The notes under the pieces: generated by a model
The model's database searches: none
What the model was told of the DNA's origin: nothing
Seen by the model: only the letters and a program-made list of their open reading frames with translations
NCBI GenBank assembly: GCA_963797095.1
Contig: CAWCNY010000005.1
Location: forward strand, 221,231 to 285,230
Source of the DNA: an uncultured Chloroflexia bacterium
Lineage (GTDB): Bacteria; Chloroflexota; Chloroflexia; QHBQ01; JADMIH01
DNA: 64,000 nucleotides
Direction of reading: 5' to 3'
Made by a program: the position numbers and the translations under genes
Shown here: positions 5,895-51,699 of the stretch, piece after piece
How the letters are laid out: every line of letters begins with the position of its first letter
How positions within the stretch are numbered: the first letter of the stretch is position 1

Positions 5895-7784
5895 GTGAGT
5901 TTCCACATGACGCTCAGTTCCTTTCGTGCGCGCCGCTCTGGTGGCCCGCGTCTCCTCATGGCTTTAATGCTGACGTTCTCTGCCCTGGGAATATTGCTCG
6001 CGCCGATCTCGCGTGCGGGTGTAGCGCAGGCGCAGACTACCCGCGCACGAACCCCCGGAGACGGCGACCTTTTCGGGATCGTGATGCGCGATCCCTTCTA
6101 CGAGTTCAACACCGACCCGGTCAACTATCCGATGCAAGCCAACAAGACGGCCCTGGAAGAGCAAGCGCAGGAGCTTGCGAACGCGGGTGTGCGCTGGGTG
6201 CGCCTGGAGTTCTTCGCCGACTATGACGGCAGCGTACCCGCAGGGGACATCAACTGGGCCAAGTACGACTACTTCATCAACGAGTTGGCCCCCAAGTACG
6301 ACCTCAAGGTGCTGGCCCTCCTGAACGTGGGGATTGTATCGTACGAGGGCCAGACAGTGCGCACAATCGCGTTCAACGACCCACCGGACGGTGCGGGCGC
6401 AGATCCCAACGACGGCTCCAACCACTTCATCCGCGTGTTCCGCGACCGAGCCGCGCAGGTAGCAGCACATTACGGGCATGCGATCAGCGCCTACGAGATC
6501 GTCAACGAACCGAACATTAGCTGGGATCTGTGGCAGGACAGCCACTATATTGAGGCCGAGATCAAATCTGAAAGATATGCAGCGCTGCTGTCGAGCGCCT
6601 ACGAAGCGATCAAGACCGTGGACCCCGACGCGCAGGTGATCACAGGCGGGATCATGATCGGCTCGCCACCCGAAGAACAAGATCGCAATGAGTTTGACTA
6701 CCTGTACGAGCTATATACATCCAAGTGGGTGGCCCGATATAAGTTGGATGGTGGGCCAAACAAACCCGGCTGGAACGTCGTGCCCTGGGACGGGGTGGCC
6801 CTGCACCCCTACTGGATGGACGCGCCAACGCTTTTTGCGCTGATCAACGACTTCTCACGCAAGCTGCGCGACCGCCAGGACTTCAAGAGCAGGCTGTGGA
6901 TCACCGAGGTGGGCGCGCCGGCCGATCCGCCTACTGGGCAGACCGACAAGCCGTCACAGCAGGAGATCGACCAGGCGTACTACCTGCGCGCCATCTACGG
7001 CGGCATCCTGGACAGCGACGAATTGAGCGCCAACGTCGCGCACGTCTTCTGGTTCAAGTACGAGGACTTTGTGCCCGGAGACTACACCCACAACTACGGG
7101 CTGGTGCGCCTTGAGGAGAACGCCACCCATGACGACTACGCACCTTCGGGCAAGGTGTGGGTGCACAAACTGGCATTCAAGGCATACCAGGAGCTTGCGC
7201 TCGGCTACAGCATCACCGACCCCGTGGCGGAAGCGGATGCCCGCGCCCAGAACTTCTTCTACTTCGATGCTACCCACCAGGCCATCGCGCCTCAGTTCGC
7301 CGAATACTGGATCGAGAAGGGGGGGTTAGAGCGCTTCGGCTATCCCATATCGCGCCCCGTGACGATTAAAGGCGTACTCAGCCAGTTCTTCCAACGCGCG
7401 GTGTTCGAGTACCACCCGGAATACGCGCGCACCCCTAACGAGGTGCTACTGCGTCTGGTTGGCAGCGAGCTTGCCGTTGGGCGCAATTTCGCTCCCGCCG
7501 ACAAATCGGTGCTCTCCAGCGACGGAATGTTCTTCCCCGAAACCGGGCACACACTGAAAGACCCATTCCTCACATTCTGGAATGAGCGCGGCGGCCTTGC
7601 TGTGTACGGCTACCCGATCTCCGAGCAGCTTTCGGAACAGGCACCTGACGGCCATATCTACACCGTCCAATATTTCGAGCGTAACCGCCTGGAGTACCAC
7701 CCCGAAGCAGCGGGCACACCCTACGAAGTACAGCTTGGCCTGCTTGGCGCGGCCCTCCTGAAAGAGGACCTCTGGTGGCGCTAG
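5895..7784 (+). CDS. Secreted clan GH-A glycoside hydrolase (GH5/GH39-like) with two C-terminal tandem repeats of about 75 aa (LGFP-like)
   Basis: Signal peptide. Acid/base motif YEIVNEPN and nucleophile motif LWITEVGAP. Two C-terminal repeats containing GG(L)xxFGYPIS...QYFERxRxEYHP...QLGLLG. Confidence 0.7.
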   Translation: MSFHMTLSSFRARRSGGPRLLMALMLTFSALGILLAPISRAGVAQAQTTRARTPGDGDLFGIVMRDPFYEFNTDPVNYPMQANKTALEEQAQELANAGVRWVRLEFFADYDGSVPAGDINWAKYDYFINELAPKYDLKVLALLNVGIVSYEGQTVRTIAFNDPPDGAGADPNDGSNHFIRVFRDRAAQVAAHYGHAISAYEIVNEPNISWDLWQDSHYIEAEIKSERYAALLSSAYEAIKTVDPDAQVITGGIMIGSPPEEQDRNEFDYLYELYTSKWVARYKLDGGPNKPGWNVVPWDGVALHPYWMDAPTLFALINDFSRKLRDRQDFKSRLWITEVGAPADPPTGQTDKPSQQEIDQAYYLRAIYGGILDSDELSANVAHVFWFKYEDFVPGDYTHNYGLVRLEENATHDDYAPSGKVWVHKLAFKAYQELALGYSITDPVAEADARAQNFFYFDATHQAIAPQFAEYWIEKGGLERFGYPISRPVTIKGVLSQFFQRAVFEYHPEYARTPNEVLLRLVGSELAVGRNFAPADKSVLSSDGMFFPETGHTLKDPFLTFWNERGGLAVYGYPISEQLSEQAPDGHIYTVQYFERNRLEYHPEAAGTPYEVQLGLLGAALLKEDLWWR

Positions 7785-7795
7785 TAGTGCGTCAA
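7781..7795. repeat. IS630 left terminal inverted repeat plus TA
   Basis: Exact reverse complement of 9051-9065. Confidence 0.8.
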
Positions 7796-8457
7796 GCGGC
7801 ATCTGATAGGTTCTCGGATTGAAGTGAGGCTTGCACTTGGATGGTTGGATACAGCTTCTTCAGTTTGATACGCGCATCAGCTGTCGTGAAGCGCCATTCC
7901 ACTGTCGCCTTGGCGTTGTTGCGCTCCTCTACCCAGCCGCTCGTTTCCATCCCCAACCGCTCTTGGTCTGCTATTCGCCGGTCCAAACACTGCTTGCTAA
8001 GCACCGATAGCTCGATCTCCGCCATGTTCAACCAACTACCATGCTTGGGTGTGTAGTGGACCTCCAACCTGTTGATGATCCGCCTCGCCTCTTCGGGCTC
8101 AAACACTTCATAAAGTGCGGATAGGTCATGCGTATTCAGATTGTCCATCACCAACCGGATCAAAACGGCATCTGGGAAGTAGGGGTCCACCAACTCACGC
8201 ATACAGTAGGCAAAGTCCACTTTGGTGCGATGCTCCGTTACCACTACCTCTCGCCAGTTCTCAAGACGAGCAAATAACATGAACAGGTTGCTCACACCGT
8301 TACGCACATACTCGTAGTCCACCCTCGCTGGCAGGCCGGGTGCTACCGGTAGGGGAGTGTGGCTCTCCCCGATTAGCTGCTTGCTCGTTTCATCGAGGCA
8401 CACCAGCGGGTATTCAGGATCATAGGGAGCAGTGTACAAATCGAGCACATCTTCCAT
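7792..8457 (-). CDS. IS630 transposase C-terminal DDE_3 part (orfB frame). The frame is open upstream to the A7 run, where a -1 shift would fuse it to orfA.
   Basis: DDE-domain motifs VCLDETSKQ, LVMDNLNTH and SWLNMAEIE. The -1 frame after AAAAAAA reads KKNEIKPWLKEEYCIPPQADADFVYHMEDVLDL, continuing directly into this ORF. Confidence 0.75.
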   Translation of the reverse strand: MEDVLDLYTAPYDPEYPLVCLDETSKQLIGESHTPLPVAPGLPARVDYEYVRNGVSNLFMLFARLENWREVVVTEHRTKVDFAYCMRELVDPYFPDAVLIRLVMDNLNTHDLSALYEVFEPEEARRIINRLEVHYTPKHGSWLNMAEIELSVLSKQCLDRRIADQERLGMETSGWVEERNNAKATVEWRFTTADARIKLKKLYPTIQVQASLQSENLSDAA

Positions 8458-14440: not shown

Positions 14441-14821
14441 ATGCGACCGGACCTCACATACTTCCTCGGCAGGCGTGTCACCGTAGTGGTGGATCGCCCT
14501 GTGGGAAGCTATCACCCGCGTTTTCCAGAGGGCGAGCCCTACCCTTTGAATTACGGTTTCGTACCGGGCACGGTCTCTGGTGATGGTGAGCCGGTAGATG
14601 TATATTTGCTTGGACCTCGGGAGCCGGTCGCGCAGGCGGTAGGCACCGTTATTGCTGTAGTGCTAAGAAGTGGCGACGTTGAAGATAAACTGGTTGTCGC
14701 CACGGACGAATACGCGTGCAACACCCCCGAAGCGGTGTGGGCGCAGATAAGCTTTCAAGAGGATTACTTCGACAGCAAGCTTTTCATGCCCGGTACTACG
14801 CACAACTTACCAACACCCTAA
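14441..14821 (+). CDS. Truncated family I inorganic pyrophosphatase-like protein
   Basis: Aligns to the PPase core (YPLNYGFVPGT, DGEPVDVYLLG, DVEDKLVVA) but lacks about 40 N-terminal residues. Length 126 aa. Confidence 0.5.
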   Translation: MRPDLTYFLGRRVTVVVDRPVGSYHPRFPEGEPYPLNYGFVPGTVSGDGEPVDVYLLGPREPVAQAVGTVIAVVLRSGDVEDKLVVATDEYACNTPEAVWAQISFQEDYFDSKLFMPGTTHNLPTP

Positions 14822-14835
14822 CACCAGGAGTAACA

Positions 14836-17328
14836 ATGCAGTTCTCACTAAGATTTGGGCGCATAGGCTCGCTCACTATATATTTCAATTACACGTGGCT
14901 GTTCGCCATCGTACTCGGCCTGTGGTGGCTGGCCCTCCTTTGGCTACCCGACCATCTGCCGGGCTGGCAAGGCCGTTGGTACTGGCTGGATGCCGTGCTT
15001 GTGCTCATTCTATACCTCGTTACATTGCTGATTTACGAGGGCATACACAGCCTTGTGGGGCGCACAGGCCCGCGCAACGCTCAGCTTTACCCCATAGGCG
15101 CGGCCCAACCATTCCGCCTCGACCGGATAGAACCTGGCAGGGGGGTGCTGGCCGCGCTTCTCGCGCCGCTGTTCAATCTGGTGCTGGGCGGTACCCTCGT
15201 GATCCTTACAAGCGGCATCGCCCCCGATGGGGTGTTCACCAATGCTATCAAGGGTCTTTTCGAGCCGTTGGGCTGGCTCAACCTGGCGCTTGGCGTCATC
15301 AACTTCATTCCCGGCATCCCATTCGACGGGGGCTGGGCCCTGAGCATGGGCATCTACTGGTTCAACGGCGACCGCGAATCCGGTATGTCGCTTGCGCGGT
15401 CGGCTGGCGGGTTCGCGGCGCTCGCGTTGGTGTTGTTGGGGGCCTGGCGCGGGCTTACGACTAATTCCTGGGTGGACGCGCTGGCACTTGTGTTCATCGG
15501 GTGGTCCGCAAACGATGCGGGCAATCTCAGCAGGGGGCGGAGCCTCCTTCGGGGCACTTTCAGCGAGCTACATACCAGCGACCTGATGATACCTGTAAGA
15601 GAGAATGACAGCGTACAGGCAAACGAGAGCGTGACAGCTTTGGTCAGAGCCTTCCCGCGCTTCCCGCCGGGCGAGCCTATAGCAGTGCTCGACGACGACG
15701 GCAAGCTAACCGGAGTGGTCACCCTCAGCGCGACGGAGGCTTTGCTACAGGGCAACTGGGCATCCACCCCAGTGCGCTCTATTGCCACCCCATTGGAAGA
15801 GGCGCACGCTCTGCCGCCGGGTGCCTCGCTTAACGACGCCATCGCCCTGTTCGAAGAGCGCCCCGTTGACCAGGATGAAGAGCTTTCCATCCCGATTGTC
15901 GAGGGTAACAAGCTTGTCGGCAGCATCAGCCCATCACGCCTCAACACGTTCGTCGGCGTGGCCGAGCAGTTCGGCGTGGAAGAGACGCTCAACCGGGAGG
16001 CCACAGCGTCTGGCGGGTTGCTTAGCATGCTCGGCAGGGTGCTGCCCGCCATCATTCTGATTACGTTCCTCGCGATCCTGGGTAACATCGCTCTACGGAC
16101 GAATCCGGCAGAGATTCGCGGCTCGACCGACGTGAACACCGAGGCCCCCATCACTTTCAAGAACTTCACCCCACCCGATGATGCCATCGTCGGCCTCGGA
16201 CCCGTTACTATCTCCGTAGAAGCAGCGGGGCCAAGCGAAATCACTACAGCCACGTTGACTCTGGACGGGCAGCCCCTGGACGCGGTAATAAGCGGCGAGT
16301 CGCCTTTGACAAAAACCCTCACCGCCTCGATCCCCGGCGCGACCCTCGGCCTTCACGACATCACAGTCAAGGCCTCGCTGGAGAGCGGCAGATCGAAAAG
16401 CGAGGATTGGCAGTTCCGTGTCAGCGCCACGGGCCAACCCGAAGGCGAGGGGACCCCACAGCCAACGCCCCAACCCACCACGCCTCCTATAGCGCCACCC
16501 GAATTCTCAGGCTTTAAGCCGGTATTGGGAGCGCAGGTGCTGGCCGGAGCCACTGCGGTGCGCGTCGGAGTGGTTGTCACATCCACGCAGCCTATCAGCC
16601 AGGCAACCGTGCTACTCGACGGGCAGGAACTGGCAGCGCAGGTCGCGCCTGTGGCGGGCAACTCCAACTTGTACTCGATCTCAGCAACCGCACCTAAGGT
16701 CGAGGCGGGGACACACAGGCTGAGGGTTGAGGTAAGCGTCGGCGGTGTTTCGGGGGCGACCGAATGGACATTCAATGCCATCACGCCCGACGACAGCAAC
16801 GTCTATTTCGAGCAAACTGGCCATTTCATCTCCGAGCCGTTCCTGAGCTACTGGCAAAACAACGGAGGGCTTGCCATCTTCGGCTACCCGATCTCCGACC
16901 GGATCGTTGAGACGGCGCAGGACACAGGCGAGCAATATATCGCCCAGTACTTCGAGCGCGCCCGCTTTGAAATACACCCGTCCATTGGAGGCACGCTGCT
17001 GTTGGGGAGGTTGGGCGCGCTAATCCACCAACCCGACCCGGCTGTGGATCCGATTGATGGTCAGCAGTACGTCCCGGAAACAGGCCACAACCTGGGAGGG
17101 GACTTCCTGGCGTACTGGAACGCCAACGGCGGCCTTGCGGTATTCGGCTATCCGATCAGCGAAGTGGTTACCGAGACTAACGCGGCTGACGGCAAAGATT
17201 ATCAGGTCCAGTACTTCGAGCGGAATCGCTTCGAGTTGCACCCAGACGCCGACCCCGCCAGCCGGGTGCAGCTAGGGCTACTTGGCGTGGAAATCTACAA
17301 ACAGATTTACGGAACGGGAACGCCATGA
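14836..17328 (+). CDS. Polytopic M50 (site-2 protease)-like protein with degenerate HExxH, CBS pair, extracellular Ig-like domains and two C-terminal LGFP-like repeats
   Basis: RBS aggag upstream of the ATG at 14836; the ORF-track start at 14716 overlaps the upstream gene. YEGIH replaces HExxH. Second M50 motif NFIPGIPFDGGW is present. CBS pair (PIAVLDDDGKLTGVV; IPIVEGNKLVGSI). Internal TM, then Ig-like regions, then 2 LGFP-like repeats. Confidence 0.65.
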   Translation: MQFSLRFGRIGSLTIYFNYTWLFAIVLGLWWLALLWLPDHLPGWQGRWYWLDAVLVLILYLVTLLIYEGIHSLVGRTGPRNAQLYPIGAAQPFRLDRIEPGRGVLAALLAPLFNLVLGGTLVILTSGIAPDGVFTNAIKGLFEPLGWLNLALGVINFIPGIPFDGGWALSMGIYWFNGDRESGMSLARSAGGFAALALVLLGAWRGLTTNSWVDALALVFIGWSANDAGNLSRGRSLLRGTFSELHTSDLMIPVRENDSVQANESVTALVRAFPRFPPGEPIAVLDDDGKLTGVVTLSATEALLQGNWASTPVRSIATPLEEAHALPPGASLNDAIALFEERPVDQDEELSIPIVEGNKLVGSISPSRLNTFVGVAEQFGVEETLNREATASGGLLSMLGRVLPAIILITFLAILGNIALRTNPAEIRGSTDVNTEAPITFKNFTPPDDAIVGLGPVTISVEAAGPSEITTATLTLDGQPLDAVISGESPLTKTLTASIPGATLGLHDITVKASLESGRSKSEDWQFRVSATGQPEGEGTPQPTPQPTTPPIAPPEFSGFKPVLGAQVLAGATAVRVGVVVTSTQPISQATVLLDGQELAAQVAPVAGNSNLYSISATAPKVEAGTHRLRVEVSVGGVSGATEWTFNAITPDDSNVYFEQTGHFISEPFLSYWQNNGGLAIFGYPISDRIVETAQDTGEQYIAQYFERARFEIHPSIGGTLLLGRLGALIHQPDPAVDPIDGQQYVPETGHNLGGDFLAYWNANGGLAVFGYPISEVVTETNAADGKDYQVQYFERNRFELHPDADPASRVQLGLLGVEIYKQIYGTGTP

Positions 17329-35252: not shown

Positions 35253-36927
35253 TTGGGTTGTGGACGGTTGCCCTGGAGGCAACACCACAACAGGCGATTA
35301 CGGAGTAGGCCATTGAGTTCTATCAATCTGGCTGTGGCCTGCGTGTGCGGGTGCGGGCTGGGACTCCTCCTGCTGGGCCACTACCCGGCAGGGCTTGACC
35401 TCGCGCCTTGGATGGTGCTAATCCTGCTGGGCTTGTGCTCCCTGGGTTGCGCGTTCCTGGGCGCACTGACAGGCGAGTCACATGGGCGGCTCTGTTGGCC
35501 GCGTTCGCCCCCCTGGGGTGCGGTCGTGCCCTCGTAATCCACCCGCCCGCTACCTCTACCGACCTGGCTTACTACAACACTCCAATCAGTTCCACCGGCC
35601 CACCCATCCAGGTTGTAGGCGTCGTTACCGGCGAGCCACTGTTGGCCGACCGCTCACAAAGTCTGCGTATCAGCGCAGAAACGATCCGGCTAGGAGGCTC
35701 TACAAGCAGGCTGGTAGTCAAGGGTGATTTGCAGGCCGTCCTCCCGCGCTACCCTGAGTACTCGTTCGGCGAGCGGCTCGTCCTCGAAGGAATCCTTACA
35801 GGCCCGCCCACACTTGGCGACTTCGATTACGCGGCGTGGCTTGGCAGGCAGGGCATTTACAGCTACATGAGCTTCCCCCGCACTCGCAGTCTGGGGCGCT
35901 CAGGCGACGAAGGATTAGAAGCACTGGTTTCGGAGGCTAGAGAGGAGGCGCGCAATACCTTGCGGCGCACGGTGGCCGAGCCGCAGGCCAGCGTCGCTAT
36001 TGGCGTGGTTGTGGGCGACCACACCGCCCTTCCCGACGCCCTGAGCGACGACTTCCGCCGGACCGGCACTTTGCACATTCTCGCCATCTCCGGCCAGAGT
36101 ATCTCCTTGCTGTCGGGCTCCTGTGGCTCATCAGGTCGGGCCGCCGGCGCAAGCGCGTCATGCCCCTATGGCTCGCCCTGATTACGGCGGTCGTGCTCGC
36201 GCTCCATACCGCCTTCACGGGAGCATCACCCCCTTAGTAAGGGCCGCGATTATGGGCGCTGTCGTCCTCTTTGCGCCCGTTGTTCGTCGCCGCTACGACC
36301 CACTTGCCGCCCTGGCGGTAGCGGCTGCGGCCATAATCCTGCTCGATCCCGATGTGCTGGCCGATGCGGGTTTCCAACTGTCATTCCTGTCTATGTGGGG
36401 CATAACCACTTTTGCCTCGCCCATAACCTCCCTGCTGGGGAAAATACGGCTGCCCGACCTCCTCTTCTATCCGCTGGCGACCAGCCTCTCCGCTCAAACC
36501 GCCACCCTCCCTCTGAGCATACTCCTCTACGGGCAGGTATCTATCGTCTCGCCGATCGCCACCCTGGTCGCCGACACCACCCTCTCACCGCTCATGCTCT
36601 CCGGTATTGCCACGGTTTCTAGGCCTTCTGCCGTGGTTCGTCTTTTCGTGGCTGGGCGGCCTGCTCGTCTGGCTGTCAGCCGCCTGGCTCACCTGGTGGG
36701 TAGAATGGTGGGCGCAATTCCCCTGTGCGGCCATTCCGGTACAAGGCTTCCAACAACTATACGCCCTCGCCTATTACGCAGCCCTCTTCGCGGGTGCATG
36801 GCTCTTTTCCAGGGCAAAACGCAGAGAGCAACTAATCGCATTAGGGCCCCGCTGCAGAGTGGCTGCCCTGGGCGCCCTAGCCGCAGGTGTCTGGGTGGCG
36901 GCGGTGCTGCTTGTTGTAGCCCGGTAG
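35253..36927 (+). pseudogene. comEC: ComEC/Rec2 competence channel (membrane domain only) fragmented by at least 3 frameshifts
   Basis: ComEC segments lie in four frames: 35253-35537, 35408-36181 (DUF4131; GTLHILAISGQSISLL), 36123 onward (GFQLSFLSMWGITTF), and 36607-36927 (C-terminal TMs). Confidence 0.6.
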
Positions 36928-37081
36928 ATACAGGCTACCTTCGTCTCCAACTTTTGGGAGAGAAGTACCACTGGCAGAGTGACCTCGAAAAGCCGCGCGT
37001 AATGTATAATCGGAACGAGTCGCCACTCTAAGGCGCTCATCTCTATGTAGTGCTCACTAATTCCGTGGGTTTTCGAAAGGC

Positions 37082-39556
37082 ATGGCATTGCACCGTAAGC
37101 ATATTTTATGTCGTTTTGCGCTGGCTATCTCGCTCATAGTCATATCCTGCGCTTTCCTCAGCCACGCTCAAACAAACCCAACCTCAGTATATGCCGCGCC
37201 AGCCCCCCCGCAGGCATCCTCCCCATTCGGTGTGGCCGGCGTGATGCGCTGGCCCGTTTGGGGCACCTTCAACGAGCCTGCTGACCTTATGTTGCAAACA
37301 GGCGGCGCGTGGGTGCGCGACGACTTCGTATGGTCCTTGATCGAACCTAAGCCCGACCAATGGGATTGGACCGCCACCGACAAGATCGTGGCCGAGTTGG
37401 GCGGGCGCAATCTCAATGTCCTGGGCCTGCTGGCCTATTCGGTAAGCTGGGCCACTTCCACCACCGACGACAATTCCACAGCGCTCTCATTCTACCCACC
37501 CGATCCCGACAAATACTACACCTTCGTTCGCACCCTCGTACGCAGATACAAGAACGTGATCCACACCTGGGAAGTGTGGAACGAGCCCGACAACAACATA
37601 TTCTGGAAGCCCTCGCCCAGTCCGCGCGACTACGCGGCCCTCCTCAAGGTCGCATACCGCGCCGTCAAGGACGCCGACCCAACTGCCAGAGTCGCAACGG
37701 GTGGCGTATCGGGAAACGCTGTGCCCTTCCTCGAAGAAGTATTCGCAAGCGGCGCATCAAACTCGTTCGACATCCTGGCGATCCACCCCTATGCCGTGCC
37801 CCTCGATCCCGCCCAGGGCCAGATACAAAGCCGCCCTGAAGTCCACAAGATACTCGATGTCGAGCTTGCCAAGTACCGCGCCCTCCTCAGCAGGCACTCA
37901 CTGGACAAGCCTGTTTGGGTCACCGAGATCGGCTGGCCCGCGAACGGTTGGAACCTGAACCCCAACCTCCAGGCCGACTACCTGGCCCAGGCTTACGCGC
38001 TCATGCTCTCAAGCGGCCTCACCGAGCGTATCTTTGCATACAGCTTCAAGGACCAATCGGCAAACGGCGGCGACAGCTGGGGCATGGTCGCCTGGGGTGA
38101 TGGCGCAACCGACCTGAGCCAGGTTCGACCATCTTTCGACGCCTACTCTACCAGCGCGAAACTCCTGACAGGCACCTCTCCCGGGGGCCGCATCCAATTA
38201 TCGCCCGTCTCAGTCGCCGTCGATTTCGAATCGGGCGGCCAGTGGTCGCGCTCCATGCAGGGCGATGGCACGCTCACCACTTCCACCGAACGCCAGCACA
38301 GCGGATCGGCCTCCGGCAAGCTGCAATACAACCTTACCGCCCAGAACCAGGCCGTGGACTTCGCGCCACCCCAGCCCGTGAACCTGCCGGGTCAGCCTAC
38401 CCGCATCGGCGTCTGGGTGCTTGGCGATGGGTCGGGCAACTACCTCAGCGCGTGGCTGCGCGACCGCGACGGCGAGCTTTTCAAGGTGCGCCTGGGGGCC
38501 GTAATGGGCGCGAACGACGGCTGGCGCTATTACGAATCCTCTATAGACAGCTATTACTTCGATTGGGAGCACGCAGGCGGCAACCCCGCCAACGGCAAGC
38601 CCGACTACCCACTCCAATTCGTCAGCTTCAGGCTTGAGAACACCCCCGACGAACCTGCCGGTGGGGGCACAATCTACCTGGATGATTTGCAGACCTGGGA
38701 GGGGCCTGATGTGACCGGCGTTCGTTTCAACAGGGGCGACGGCACCGTCGTTGATGTCGTATGGTCGGCCAACCCCACCCAGGCCCTTCTGCCCACCTCA
38801 TCGGGAACCGCCCAGGTCTTTACTCGCGACGGAGCGGAATCGACCGTGACCGCAGGCAACGGCGCGATTCCACTCGATGTCAACGATAGCCCAATTTATG
38901 TGGTCCATAAACCTCCTATCAGCGCCCTGAAAACGACCGCTCCGGTGCTGCCAAACGGCGGGTACACTCAATTGTGCGATGCCGCCCAACCTGCCGCCGA
39001 CCTCAACGCCCCCGGCAACACTTTCTACTCCCAGACATGGCACAACCTCTCCGAACCGTTCAGGTCCTACTGGCAGAGCCACGGAGGTGTGAACATCCTG
39101 GGCTACCCGATCACCGAGGTGTTTGAGGGCACACTGGACGATGGCAAGCCCTACAAGCTGCAATATTTCGAACGCGCCAGGATCGAATACCACCCTGAAA
39201 ATCGCTCACCCGAAGATGTGCAATTGGGACTGTTAGGCGTGTGGGCTGCCGCTCACTCCGATGCGTCACACGTGGCACAGGCGCAGGCCGCACCGGGGGG
39301 GCAGTTCTTCCCTGAAACGGGCCAGACTCTCAACATCTTCAGCGCCTGGTGGAACGCCAACGGCGGCCTCTCGACTTTCGGCTTCCCTATATCGCCTGAG
39401 ACCAAAGAGCGCAACGCCGCCGACGGCAAAGACTACACAGTGCAGTACTTCGAGCGCAATCGCCTCGAATACCACCCCGAAAACGCGGGCACATCCCAGG
39501 AAGTGATGCTCGGACTCCTCGGTACCGAGTACGTGACCGCGCAGGGCTGCCGCTGA
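37082..39556 (+). CDS. Secreted clan GH-A glycoside hydrolase (GH39/GH5-like) with beta-sandwich region and two C-terminal LGFP-like repeats
   Basis: Signal peptide. HTWEVWNEPDN acid/base motif. PVWVTEIGWP nucleophile motif. Repeats at 39023-39553 (GGVNILGYPITE...LQYFERARIEYHP; GGLSTFGFPISPE...VQYFERNRLEYHP). Confidence 0.7.
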   Translation: MALHRKHILCRFALAISLIVISCAFLSHAQTNPTSVYAAPAPPQASSPFGVAGVMRWPVWGTFNEPADLMLQTGGAWVRDDFVWSLIEPKPDQWDWTATDKIVAELGGRNLNVLGLLAYSVSWATSTTDDNSTALSFYPPDPDKYYTFVRTLVRRYKNVIHTWEVWNEPDNNIFWKPSPSPRDYAALLKVAYRAVKDADPTARVATGGVSGNAVPFLEEVFASGASNSFDILAIHPYAVPLDPAQGQIQSRPEVHKILDVELAKYRALLSRHSLDKPVWVTEIGWPANGWNLNPNLQADYLAQAYALMLSSGLTERIFAYSFKDQSANGGDSWGMVAWGDGATDLSQVRPSFDAYSTSAKLLTGTSPGGRIQLSPVSVAVDFESGGQWSRSMQGDGTLTTSTERQHSGSASGKLQYNLTAQNQAVDFAPPQPVNLPGQPTRIGVWVLGDGSGNYLSAWLRDRDGELFKVRLGAVMGANDGWRYYESSIDSYYFDWEHAGGNPANGKPDYPLQFVSFRLENTPDEPAGGGTIYLDDLQTWEGPDVTGVRFNRGDGTVVDVVWSANPTQALLPTSSGTAQVFTRDGAESTVTAGNGAIPLDVNDSPIYVVHKPPISALKTTAPVLPNGGYTQLCDAAQPAADLNAPGNTFYSQTWHNLSEPFRSYWQSHGGVNILGYPITEVFEGTLDDGKPYKLQYFERARIEYHPENRSPEDVQLGLLGVWAAAHSDASHVAQAQAAPGGQFFPETGQTLNIFSAWWNANGGLSTFGFPISPETKERNAADGKDYTVQYFERNRLEYHPENAGTSQEVMLGLLGTEYVTAQGCR

Positions 39557-48854: not shown

Positions 48855-48960
48855 CAGGCTCTTATCAAGAGAGGTGGAGGGATACGGCCCTATGAAGCCC
48901 GGCAACCAGACCAACGGTGGTCCAGGTGCCAACTCCGACAGAGCGATCTGTAAGATGAGG
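48855..48960 (+). promoter_or_regulatory. SAM-I (S-box) riboswitch aptamer
   Basis: ctcTTATCAAGAGaGGtGGAGGGAtacGGCCCtATGAAgCCCGGCAACC...GGTGCCAActCC...aAGATGAG is a near-consensus S-box core, including the P1 strands CUCUUAUC/GAUGAG. Confidence 0.8.
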
Positions 48961-48993
48961 GAGTGGTTGGTCTGGCGCTACGCGCACATGCCT

Positions 48994-49019: not shown

Positions 49020-49068
49020 ATCCCTCAAAGTGAGTGAGCCGGACTGAGCAATATGGAGAATTCGACCA

Positions 49069-49095
49069 ACGCCCCTTCGCTGGGCGTTTTTGTTT
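49069..49095 (+). terminator. Second terminator-like hairpin upstream of the aspartokinase start
   Basis: aacgccc-cttcgct-gggcgtt followed by tttgttt, about 30 nt before the ask start. Confidence 0.45.
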
Positions 49096-49126
49096 GCCCA
49101 ATTTTCATGATACAGGGTGCAGCATA

Positions 49127-50494
49127 GTGAGTTTTGTAGTACAAAAGTATGGCGGTACATCGGTGGCGACCACCGAACGCATCCGGGCGGTTGCCCACCG
49201 CATTCGCGCTCGCCACGATCAAGGCGACCGGTTGGTGGTGGTGGTGAGCGCTATGGGCAACACCACCGACGACCTGTTGGCCCTTGGACTCTCCCTCAAC
49301 CCACAGGCCTATGGTCGCGAAGTCGATCTGCTTATGTCCACGGGCGAGGTGGTGTCCTGCGCCCTCCTGGCCCTTGCTCTGCAAGACCTGGGTGTGCCCG
49401 CCCGCGCATTCACCGGCGCACAGGCGGGCATCCTCACCGACGGCAATTTCAGCAGGGCCGCCATCGCCGGTCTGAAACCCGACCGCCTCCAAGCCTCCCT
49501 GGCAATCGGCGAGGTGCCGGTAGTAGCCGGCTTCCAGGGCATAAGTGGCACCGACATCGAGATCGAAGTAACAACCCTCGGTCGTGGCGGCTCCGATACC
49601 ACCGCCGTTGCCCTCGCCGCAGGCTTACACGCTGAAAGGTGCGAAATCTATACCGACGTGGACGGTATCTTTACCGCCGACCCGCGTGTGGTCCCAGGCG
49701 CTCGCCGCCTGTCGCGTATCACGCCTACCGAGATGCTGGAGCTTGCTCAGCAAGGCGCTCAGGTAATGCACCCCCGCGCCGTCGAGCTTGGCGGCATCTA
49801 CAACATACCAATCCGGGTGGCCTCCAGCTTCAACGATGGGCCGGGCACATGGATCATAGCGCCCGGTTCGCCCCTACCGGCAATATATGGACCTGCCTTT
49901 CACACTCTTTCTCACAATCTGGAGGAGCAATTGGAGCTAAAGAACAAAGTCTCAGGCATAGCCCACGATACTAACGTGGCCCGCATAACAGTCTTCGGCC
50001 TCCCCAGGCCCCAGTTCGCCCTCTTCCGTCTCTTCGGCCCCCTGGCCGAGGCTGGCATCAACGTCGACGCCATAGCTCATTCAATCGAGCCGGGCGGCGA
50101 GCATGCCGACTGCTCGTTTACCGTCACCGAGTCCGATCTCACCCGCGCTTTGTCGATCACCCGGCATACAGCCACCAACCTGGGCGCGTACAACGTCCAA
50201 GGCGAGCGCGCCGTAGGCAAAGTCTCCGTCATCGGCCTCGGTGTGCAACACGTACCCGGCCTCGCCTGCCACGCTTTCGCCGCCCTTGAAAGCGCGGGCA
50301 TAGAGATCGACATGGTCACTACCTCGCAGGTACGTATTACCTGCCTGGTCCTCGAATCGCGGGTCGTTGAGGCCGCGCTGCTCTTGCACTCCGCTTTCGG
50401 CCTCGACGGGGAGCCAACAAGCGACACGCATCTCAAACCGGACATCATCGCCCCTGCACTGGCAGGCGTGCTCACCCCAGGGGGTGGAGCATGA
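49127..50494 (+). CDS. ask: Aspartate kinase with C-terminal ACT domains
   Basis: GTG start just before VVQKYGGTSV. AK motifs VVSAMGNTTD and two ACT-like repeats. The ORF-track 5' extension covers the terminators and is not coding. Confidence 0.8.
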   Translation: MSFVVQKYGGTSVATTERIRAVAHRIRARHDQGDRLVVVVSAMGNTTDDLLALGLSLNPQAYGREVDLLMSTGEVVSCALLALALQDLGVPARAFTGAQAGILTDGNFSRAAIAGLKPDRLQASLAIGEVPVVAGFQGISGTDIEIEVTTLGRGGSDTTAVALAAGLHAERCEIYTDVDGIFTADPRVVPGARRLSRITPTEMLELAQQGAQVMHPRAVELGGIYNIPIRVASSFNDGPGTWIIAPGSPLPAIYGPAFHTLSHNLEEQLELKNKVSGIAHDTNVARITVFGLPRPQFALFRLFGPLAEAGINVDAIAHSIEPGGEHADCSFTVTESDLTRALSITRHTATNLGAYNVQGERAVGKVSVIGLGVQHVPGLACHAFAALESAGIEIDMVTTSQVRITCLVLESRVVEAALLLHSAFGLDGEPTSDTHLKPDIIAPALAGVLTPGGGA

Positions 50495-51699
50495 CTGTAC
50501 AATCCTCCGGCCTGATCGACCTGACATTCCTCGACGACGATCCTTCTGTCGCCCTACGACCCCTCGCCGTCGAGGCAGACGATGTGCCGGTCGGCCCCAG
50601 GCATCTATGGACCCTCCCCGAAGGTCTCCGCCTGGAATCCGGCGCGCACCTCGCGCCCATCGAAGTAGCCTACGAGACCTGGGGCCACCTCAACGCAACA
50701 GGCGACAACGCGATACTCGTCTGCCATGCCCTCACTGGCGACTCCCACGCTGCCGGTAGATACTCCCCCGATGACGACCACCTCGGCTGGTGGGACCCCC
50801 TGATCGGCCCCAACCGCGCCTTCGATACAAATCGCTACTTCGTGGTGTGCGCCAACGTGCTCGGCGGCTGCCAGGGCACCACAGGCCCCGCGTCGATCAA
50901 CCCTGGCACGGGCCGCCCCTATGGCAGCGTCTTCCCCCAGGTCACAGTGCGCGACATCGTGCGCCTCCAATACAGCCTTCTATGCGCGTTGGGTGTCCGG
51001 CGTCTGGCGGCGGTCGCGGGCGGCTCGCTCGGCGGGATGCAGGTGCTGGAGTGGCTCGTTACATACCCCGGCTTCGTCGCCAAAGCCATCCCCATAGGCT
51101 CTTCTCTCGCCCACACCTCGCAGGGCATAGCCTACAACCTGGTGGGACGCCAGGCTATTATGCTCGACCCCGATTGGCAAGGTGGCGACTACTACGGCAC
51201 AGACCGGTCCCCTGGGCGTGGCCTCTCAATCGCTCGCATGGTCGGCATGATCACCTACCAGAGCGAGGAGTCGATGCGACGCAAGTTCGCAAGGGACCGT
51301 GTAGACCCTTCGCCCGACTCGTATTACGATCCCGACAGCCTCTTCCAGGTTGAAAGCTATCTCCACTACCAGGGCGCATCTCTCGTCAAACGTTTCGACG
51401 CCAACAGCTACCTGCTCCTTTCCAGGGCAATGGACCTGCACGACATAGGCCGCTCTCGCGGTGGCGTAGACGAAGCGCTATCCCGCATAAGCCCCACCAC
51501 AGACACCCTTTTGATAGGCATCAACAGCGACATCCTTTTCCCCACCCACCACCAGCGCGAAACAGCTGGCCGCCTGACTGCCTCAGGCCACAACGCAACC
51601 TACACAGAGATAGATTCCCCATGGGGCCACGATGCCTTCCTGATAGAATACAACCAGCTAGCCTCAGCAATAGCCAATTTCATTGGAATTGACGAGTGA
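50491..51699 (+). CDS. metX: Homoserine O-acetyltransferase MetX
   Basis: Alpha/beta hydrolase with GGSLGGMQ nucleophile. MetX N-terminal pattern. ATGA overlap with ask. Confidence 0.85.
   Translation: MTVQSSGLIDLTFLDDDPSVALRPLAVEADDVPVGPRHLWTLPEGLRLESGAHLAPIEVAYETWGHLNATGDNAILVCHALTGDSHAAGRYSPDDDHLGWWDPLIGPNRAFDTNRYFVVCANVLGGCQGTTGPASINPGTGRPYGSVFPQVTVRDIVRLQYSLLCALGVRRLAAVAGGSLGGMQVLEWLVTYPGFVAKAIPIGSSLAHTSQGIAYNLVGRQAIMLDPDWQGGDYYGTDRSPGRGLSIARMVGMITYQSEESMRRKFARDRVDPSPDSYYDPDSLFQVESYLHYQGASLVKRFDANSYLLLSRAMDLHDIGRSRGGVDEALSRISPTTDTLLIGINSDILFPTHHQRETAGRLTASGHNATYTEIDSPWGHDAFLIEYNQLASAIANFIGIDE

Follow-up and report, generated by a model that had tools for sequence, protein, structure and literature searches.

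A tandem repeat distantly related to LGFP at the ends of Chloroflexota surface proteins, a candidate cell-wall-binding module

What holds exported proteins at the surface of Chloroflexota? The cell envelope of this phylum is unusual and still debated, Chloroflexia are monoderm but Gram-negative-staining, and little is known about how their surface proteins are retained. The question is raised by a 64,000-nucleotide stretch of DNA from an uncultured Chloroflexia bacterium (assembly GCA_963797095.1, contig CAWCNY010000005.1, positions 221,231 to 285,230), which is here called the window. Three genes on its + strand each end in two copies of the same repeat: p1 (5895..7784; 629 amino acids, aa), a secreted clan GH-A-like glycoside hydrolase (GH); p2 (14836..17328, with the longest open reading frame, ORF, starting at 14716; 830 or 870 aa), an M50 (S2P)-like membrane protein; and p3 (37082..39556; 824 aa), a secreted GH39/Glyco_hydro_cc-like hydrolase with a FlaA-like beta-sandwich region before the repeats. 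An earlier note on this DNA had described the repeat as a lineage-specific, LGFP-like envelope-targeting module. Here, we describe the repeat as a distant relative of LGFP and argue that the pair probably binds the cell wall.

The repeat and its relation to LGFP

The six copies all lie on the + strand: repeats 1a and 1b at 7251..7478 and 7524..7763 (p1 aa 453-528 and 544-623), repeats 2a and 2b at 16795..17031 and 17059..17301 (aa 694-772 and 782-862 of the 870-aa ORF of p2), and repeats 3a and 3b at 39014..39253 and 39296..39538 (p3 aa 645-724 and 739-819). A hidden Markov model (HMM) built from them and run against the six-frame translation of the window recovered every copy, with domain E-values between 1e-32 and 1e-39 (1a, 5.7e-32; 1b, 1.5e-39; 2a, 2e-36; 2b, 7.8e-39; 3a, 2.3e-37; 3b, 1.7e-38). 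The same search found no further copies in the 64 kb, and nothing else scored below E ~1. Alignment and HMM thus bear out the earlier description of two C-terminal copies on each protein; the length of about 75 aa given there needs correction, as the units measure 76-81 aa and so come nearer to 80, with 9-15 aa between the two copies. Their consensus reads FFPETGHxLxxPFLxYWNxNGGLAxFGYPISE...DGKxYxVQYFERNRFEYHPE..GT..EVQLGLLG, and 16 columns of the six-copy alignment are invariant (T, F, W, GG, G-P-I, Q-F-R, E-H-P, L and G). Repeat 1a, which has no TGH and a shorter loop, is the most divergent copy.

Pairwise protein identity between the copies is 36-62%, and the distal copies 1b, 2b and 3b are the most alike (58-62%). 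At the DNA level, identity is 50-64% and the longest common word is 20 nt. We therefore reject recent duplication as the source of the window repeats: judged by their sequences, they are old copies, neither recent duplications nor conversion tracts. Because of this low DNA identity, and because the family comprises 7485 clusters (see below), the earlier note's caveat that the repeat might occur only in three recently duplicated paralogues does not hold.

Does the repeat belong to LGFP (PF08310)? In scans of the whole proteins, the tails of p1, p2 and p3 had no Pfam or NCBIfam match. When repeats were isolated, 3a matched LGFP with E 0.013 and 16.3 bits over profile positions 1-47 of 53, and 2b with E 0.098 and 13.5 bits, both below the Pfam gathering cut-off of 22 bits. 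A broader sample gave a clearer picture: among 60 diverse isolated repeats of the family, 35 matched Pfam LGFP at E ≤ 10 (best E 7.6e-5), and no other Pfam family was matched more than once. A single match of one repeat to Choline_bind_3 (E 0.97) was rejected as noise. The Pfam scan proposed earlier thus had a divided outcome, since the window proteins fall below the cut-off but LGFP is the sole family to recur on isolated repeats, and no unrelated domain matches the tails.

Longer relatives strengthen the connection. LGFP was matched at E ≤ 1e-3 in 17 of 150 full-length relatives, and in the four-copy relatives the LGFP matches fall on the same repeats as those of the family HMM, with summed scores of 28-57 bits, above the cut-off. 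This four-copy subgroup (P0122, P0124, P0128, P0132, P0137, P0163 and P0184) has repeats of 70-75 aa that directly follow the signal peptide, lack the xxDGKxY loop and have FF in place of YW. By score its members are bona fide Pfam LGFP, and they link the 80-aa form to canonical LGFP.

Comparison with solved structures at the sequence level was mixed. Neither the six-repeat profile (at E ≤ 10) nor P0132 alone matched any PDB sequence; with the 60-repeat profile, PS1 (6swz) came out on top with four in-register stretches, at a non-significant E of 0.13. Aligned by hhalign with the four LGFP repeats of PS1, the family profile gave 79% probability and E 1.5e-5 over 44 columns, in register. The signature motif itself is present as [FLY]G[YF]P, with its G and P invariant both in the six copies and in the 60-repeat alignment. 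In the Pfam alignment, LGFP positions 30-50 are taken up by ETGHxLxGxFxxYWxxxGG and positions 1 to ~35 by LGYP...QYFER...EYHP; on this reading, some 25 additional residues (EVQLGLLG strand, helix, linker and YF strand) set successive cores apart. These data indicate a transitive, family-level sequence relationship to LGFP and uphold the label 'LGFP-like' for the family as a whole. The units do not follow the pattern of ~54 residues in arrays of at least three, as they are 76-81 aa long and 135 of the 150 best relatives have two.

The predicted structure is consistent with this relationship. The AlphaFold2 model of the p2 pair, which includes repeat 2a and was built from 123 sequences, is confident and well folded (predicted local distance difference test, pLDDT, 95.3; predicted template modelling score, pTM, 0.88). 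Each modelled unit consists of a two-strand hairpin (YF / HxL), a helix (F..YW), a short GGL helix, four strands (after GYP, VQYFE, R.E.H and VQLG) and a terminal helix, and the two copies are predicted to pack as a single rigid unit. The predicted pair shows, in each repeat, the helix and small antiparallel sheet of the LGFP fold of mycoloyltransferase A (MytA) and PS1. A Foldseek search of the model against the PDB gave no significant match. Against the viral models of BFVD, it gave three matches at probability 1.00, with E 9e-6, 1.6e-3 and 2.2e-3, of which only the first passes E ≤ 0.001. Two of the three are amidase/Lysin A proteins of Gordonia phages; an LGFP-type wall-binding region has been assigned to some Gordonia phage Lysin A proteins, though not specifically to those of the two matched phages (PMC9671378).

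Because the sequence evidence and the structural evidence (AlphaFold2, and Foldseek against viral models) point the same way, we regard the repeat as a distant relative of LGFP. Homology between the two is very likely, and the repeat is best described as a divergent, lengthened branch of the LGFP repeat superfamily and not as a canonical member.

Family, cargo and viral contigs

How widely is the repeat used? A HMMER scan over 1.84 billion representatives, clustered at 50% identity, found 7485 clusters at E ≤ 1e-3 and 2729 at E ≤ 1e-30. The following counts refer to the best 150 representatives. Two copies are present in 135 of them, four in 10 and three in 5, with a median linker of 17 aa. 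The module is C-terminal in 112, stands right after the N-terminal signal region in 22 and is internal in 6; the remaining 10 proteins are little but repeats. By a simple hydrophobicity heuristic, 105 of the 129 complete representatives have an N-terminal hydrophobic segment.

The proteins that carry the module differ widely. Sortilin/BNR propellers are the most common cargo (41/150), followed by Peptidase_S8 (9/150), GH5 (6/150), Amidase_2 (4/150), GH18 (3/150) and Peptidase_M50 (2/150); further cargo includes NHL, Kelch and FG-GAP propellers, esterases, a beta-lactamase, GH113, GH99 and a melibiase. The view that the module is appended to otherwise unrelated catalytic domains therefore extends well beyond p1, p2 and p3. 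Together, these results show that the two ~80-aa units form an autonomous, well-folded extracytoplasmic module, which is fused mostly C-terminally and sometimes N-terminally to very different secreted or membrane-anchored proteins.

The two copies keep their places. In two-copy proteins, 243 of 270 repeats are closest to the copy at the same position in another protein, and only 8 to their own partner. The pair therefore travels as a unit, and these relationships show that it is inherited and shuffled as one, and is not homogenised. Profiles specific to the first and second copies differ by a few bits only, and we rejected the idea of distinct functional first-copy and second-copy subtypes on that ground.

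Judged by names, the taxonomic spread is narrow. When one genome of each GTDB species was scanned, more than 595 stretches came up, 580 of them confirmed; 80 loci were listed. Chloroflexota titles stand on 77 of the 80, with Chloroflexia, Chloroflexus, Oscillochloris, Roseiflexaceae, Kouleothrix, Herpetosiphonaceae, Thermomicrobium, Sphaerobacter, Thermomicrobiales and Chlorohelix among them; the other three are metagenome-assembled genomes (MAGs) with uninformative titles (Bacterium HR26, Bacterium HR28 and 'uncultured bacterium'). The named protein matches, fragments of at most 142 aa, are likewise all from Chloroflexota, including Nitrolancea. Within this phylum the repeat is widespread, and the named genomes that have it belong to Chloroflexales, Herpetosiphonaceae, Thermomicrobiales and Chloroheliales. 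To this extent the module can indeed be called lineage-specific.

The Chloroflexota-type repeat is also encoded on 34 IMG/VR contigs, where the phage copies are mostly single ~80-aa units. A peptidoglycan hydrolase domain was present in 26 of the 31 viral carrier ORFs scanned (Amidase_2 in 16, Glucosaminidase in 8, Amidase_3 in 2). A catalytic domain with this repeat behind it is the arrangement typical of lysins that have a wall-binding domain. LGFP has itself been proposed as the wall-binding domain of some actinophage LysA endolysins (PMC3314691, PMC9671378).

Contig L084 encodes, in this order, a minor head protein, a holin, an endolysin with one repeat at its end, and an integrase, and on contig L095 an endolysin/amidase likewise has the repeat at its C terminus. 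At 2139-4261 of L084, the end of the holin gene overlaps the start of the gene for the 562-aa endolysin, which comprises ~290 N-terminal residues of unassigned function, an amidase-like core and the single Chloroflexota-type repeat. We consider this region a candidate lysis cassette of an uncultured Chloroflexota (pro)phage.

Function of the repeat pair

What might the pair do? We favour the reading that it is a non-covalent cell-wall-binding module that keeps its cargo at the cell surface, and on the analogies below we think this probable. After export, the pair would bind non-covalently to a component of the wall, either peptidoglycan or an attached polysaccharide, and this binding would keep the cargo at the cell surface. 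In p1 and p3, it would retain two GH-A glycosidases in the wall, and in p2 it would tie the outer end of the membrane S2P-like protein to the wall; phages of these bacteria appear to use the same module as an endolysin wall-binding domain. The closest experimental parallel is that LGFP domains of MytA pull down with peptidoglycan-arabinogalactan, according to the summary given in PMC11299179. We prefer a wall anchor to a carbohydrate-binding module, a docking module or a sorting signal because of the lysin layout on viral contigs and the very mixed secreted cargo; for envelope targeting, the presence of the repeat on phage-type endolysins is the strongest indirect support.

Several points weigh against this reading. 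Whole p1, p2 and p3 have no match to Pfam LGFP at E ≤ 1, and even their best isolated repeats, at 16.3 and 13.5 bits, miss its gathering score. The unit is ~80 aa long against ~54 aa for LGFP. To our knowledge, arabinogalactan, attached to peptidoglycan or otherwise, is not expected in Chloroflexota, and the ligand of the repeat would therefore differ at least partly from the actinobacterial one. Many cargo domains are glycoside hydrolases, which would also suit a substrate-targeting carbohydrate-binding module. On the viral side, the holin-endolysin cassette occurs in only one (L084) of the two contigs whose flanks were examined (L084 and L095), and IMG/VR contigs can include host DNA. Finally, the case for wall binding by this LGFP branch is a comparative one.

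The alternative that survives best is that the pair targets hydrolases to an environmental substrate or an exopolysaccharide, as a carbohydrate-binding module, and is not an anchor to the cell's own wall. That p1 and p3 are GH-A-type glycosidases, and that relatives carry GH5, GH18, GH113, GH99, melibiase and PslG-like cargo, agrees with it. Yet the same pair is also found on proteins without a polysaccharide substrate (S8 proteases, M50 membrane proteins, esterases, a beta-lactamase, many beta-propellers and repeat-only proteins), the cargo on viral contigs is nearly always a peptidoglycan hydrolase, and the nearest characterised relative binds the cell wall. We consider this alternative unlikely.

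Less likely still is that the pair mediates protein-protein docking or oligomerisation, for example to a surface-layer (S-layer) or sheath protein, or that it stabilises its cargo. The prediction of two copies as one rigid unit would suit such a role, as would the 10 of 150 representatives that consist of little more than repeats, and the primary MytA paper reportedly links the LGFP domain to protein stability as well. Phage endolysins, however, act on the wall from inside the cell and would gain nothing from docking to an S-layer, and no conserved partner gene lies beside p1, p2 or p3, whose neighbours are unrelated housekeeping genes. That the pair is a sorting or secretion signal, which machinery for export or attachment would recognise and afterwards cut away, like the C-terminal domains of the type IX secretion system or PEP-CTERM tags, is highly improbable: its extreme C-terminal position in 112 of 150 representatives is what such a tag would have, but it follows the signal peptide in 22 and is internal in 6, occurs on holin-dependent endolysins, is a folded tandem domain of 180 aa with homology to a binding repeat, and has no terminal hydrophobic or charged tail.

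Wall binding thus remains the reading that we prefer. A broader proposal builds on it, which we put forward only tentatively, as something that may well prove wrong: the two-repeat ~80-aa cassette could be the principal non-covalent wall-anchoring system of the class Chloroflexia, recognising a wall polymer specific to these bacteria and co-opted by their phages as an endolysin targeting domain. If this were true, the module would define the surface proteome (three carriers lie in this 64 kb alone), would merit a family of its own, and could be used to mark surface proteins and to predict the hosts of Chloroflexota phages. More generally, a single module found in thousands of clusters would predict wall-associated proteins, would offer, as a GFP fusion, a ready-made probe for the wall ligand, and would point to endolysins, and through them to phages, in a phylum from which hardly any phage has been cultured. 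As the two-copy form escapes the current Pfam and NCBIfam models, the annotation of thousands of proteins gives only their cargo or calls them hypothetical, which a dedicated model would fix.

Carrier genes and comparison with known systems

In p1, a weak Pfam match to Glyco_hydro_cc is accompanied by NEP and TEVG motifs, and a single hydrophobic segment at aa 17-41 resembles a signal peptide; translation may start at the ATG at 5907 rather than at 5895. In p3, GH39 and Glyco_hydro_cc both match (Pfam), with NEP and TE[VI]G motifs and a signal-peptide-like hydrophobic segment at aa 6-31. These matches and motifs agree with the earlier assignment of both proteins to clan GH-A. Between the GH core and the repeats of p3 (window 38400-38700, aa ~440-537) lies a weak, below-cut-off match to the flagellar-sheath family FlaA (E 4e-5), probably a beta-sandwich or a spacer domain like a carbohydrate-binding module.

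Translation of p2 likely starts at the ATG at 14836; the orthologue on locus L001 aligns with p2 (870-aa ORF) from residue 38. According to Pfam, the order of p2 is M50/S2P-like membrane domain, CBS pair, hydrophobic segment (aa 431-463), two Big_7 domains and repeats. As this transmembrane segment lies between the CBS pair on one side and the Big_7 domains and repeats on the other, this order places the repeats on the outside. At aa 107-111 of the 870-aa ORF, p2 has YEGIH in place of HExxH and keeps the NxxPxxxxDG motif, and its orthologues keep HExxH (AHEFVHS in L001, AHELVHS in P0243). The first metal ligand thus seems to have been lost in the p2 lineage only, in keeping with the earlier label 'pseudo-S2P'. 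Full-length orthologues of p1 with the tail share 60-70% identity in Chloroflexia MAGs and 36-39% in Chlorohelix, HR28 and a Thermomicrobiales MAG, and an orthologue of p2 shares 50%; these fusions of the tail to p1- and p2-type proteins are old. Exact-sequence look-ups gave no record of p1 or p3, and even the closest orthologues, in Chloroflexia MAGs, do not exceed 70% identity.

An operon or island linking the three genes was rejected, as unrelated housekeeping genes lie between them; among the neighbours are genes for an S41 peptidase, a nucleoside phosphorylase, a transposase, a dynamin-like GTPase, a GNAT protein, a DUF255 thioredoxin, a ComEC-like protein and an M1 peptidase. The transposase ORF, of DDE_3 (IS630) type (7792-8457, - strand, 221 aa), ends 8 bases past the stop codon of p1 and holds the DDE part only, so the element may be truncated or frameshifted. 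The ComEC/Rec2-like competence gene before p3 (35408-37031, + strand) falls into two ORFs that overlap but are read in different frames: 35408-36181 covers DUF4131 and positions 2-40 of the Competence profile, and 36123-37031 covers positions 73-205. This is a frameshift, reflecting either a pseudogene or a sequencing error. Further along, an S-adenosylmethionine (SAM) riboswitch (48859-48961, + strand, 80.7 bits) lies upstream of an aspartate kinase gene (49034-50494), which is followed by an alpha/beta hydrolase gene (50491-51699), possibly for a homoserine acyltransferase; the arrangement looks like a SAM-controlled operon of the methionine pathway.

How does the module compare with what is already described? 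As a member of the LGFP superfamily, it is not categorically new, and a minority of its relatives score above the Pfam threshold. Neither Pfam-A nor NCBIfam nor any solved structure captures its 80-aa unit, its two-copy cassette, the confinement of named matches to Chloroflexota, the scale of the family or its use in phage lysins, and the literature searched contained no paper linking LGFP with Chloroflexota proteins.

The closest structural counterpart, and the only clear one, appears to be the LGFP region of Corynebacterium glutamicum PS1/MytA (PDB 6swz, 6sx4), though Foldseek found no significant match in the PDB. The order of core elements is shared (a helix with W/Y...GG, [LF]G[FY]P, an acidic residue, Q-F-E and a strand), and in the hhalign alignment the two are in register. 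Each is a tandem, extracytoplasmic module that in most cases stands at the C terminus, and each is carried by envelope-acting enzymes. They differ in several respects. The canonical LGFP repeat is ~54 aa long (PMC11299179, PMC3314691), whereas the Chloroflexota unit has ~80 aa plus a linker of 9-19 aa; its ~25 extra residues, an EVQLGLLG strand, a short helix and a YF strand, separate the EYHP strand from the TGH strand that follows. Typically it comes in two copies, in contrast to three to five or more for LGFP, it is found in Chloroflexota and not in the Actinomycetota of PS1/MytA, and, unlike canonical LGFP, its two-copy proteins stay below the Pfam threshold.

Lysin A proteins of actinophages (Barnyard gp39; Gordonia phages) have the same layout of an amidase or glycosidase followed by the repeat that is found here in 26 of 31 viral ORFs, with a holin as neighbour in L084. 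In this case the differences are that deposited phage genomes contain no match to the repeat tail (tblastn) and that the Chloroflexota-type phage copies are mostly single ~80-aa units. The familiar non-covalent wall anchors of monoderms, namely SLH, LysM, SH3b and choline-binding repeats, have no match to the Chloroflexota repeat in sequence or fold, but they share its logic: a small repeated module placed on many secreted proteins and on phage lysins.

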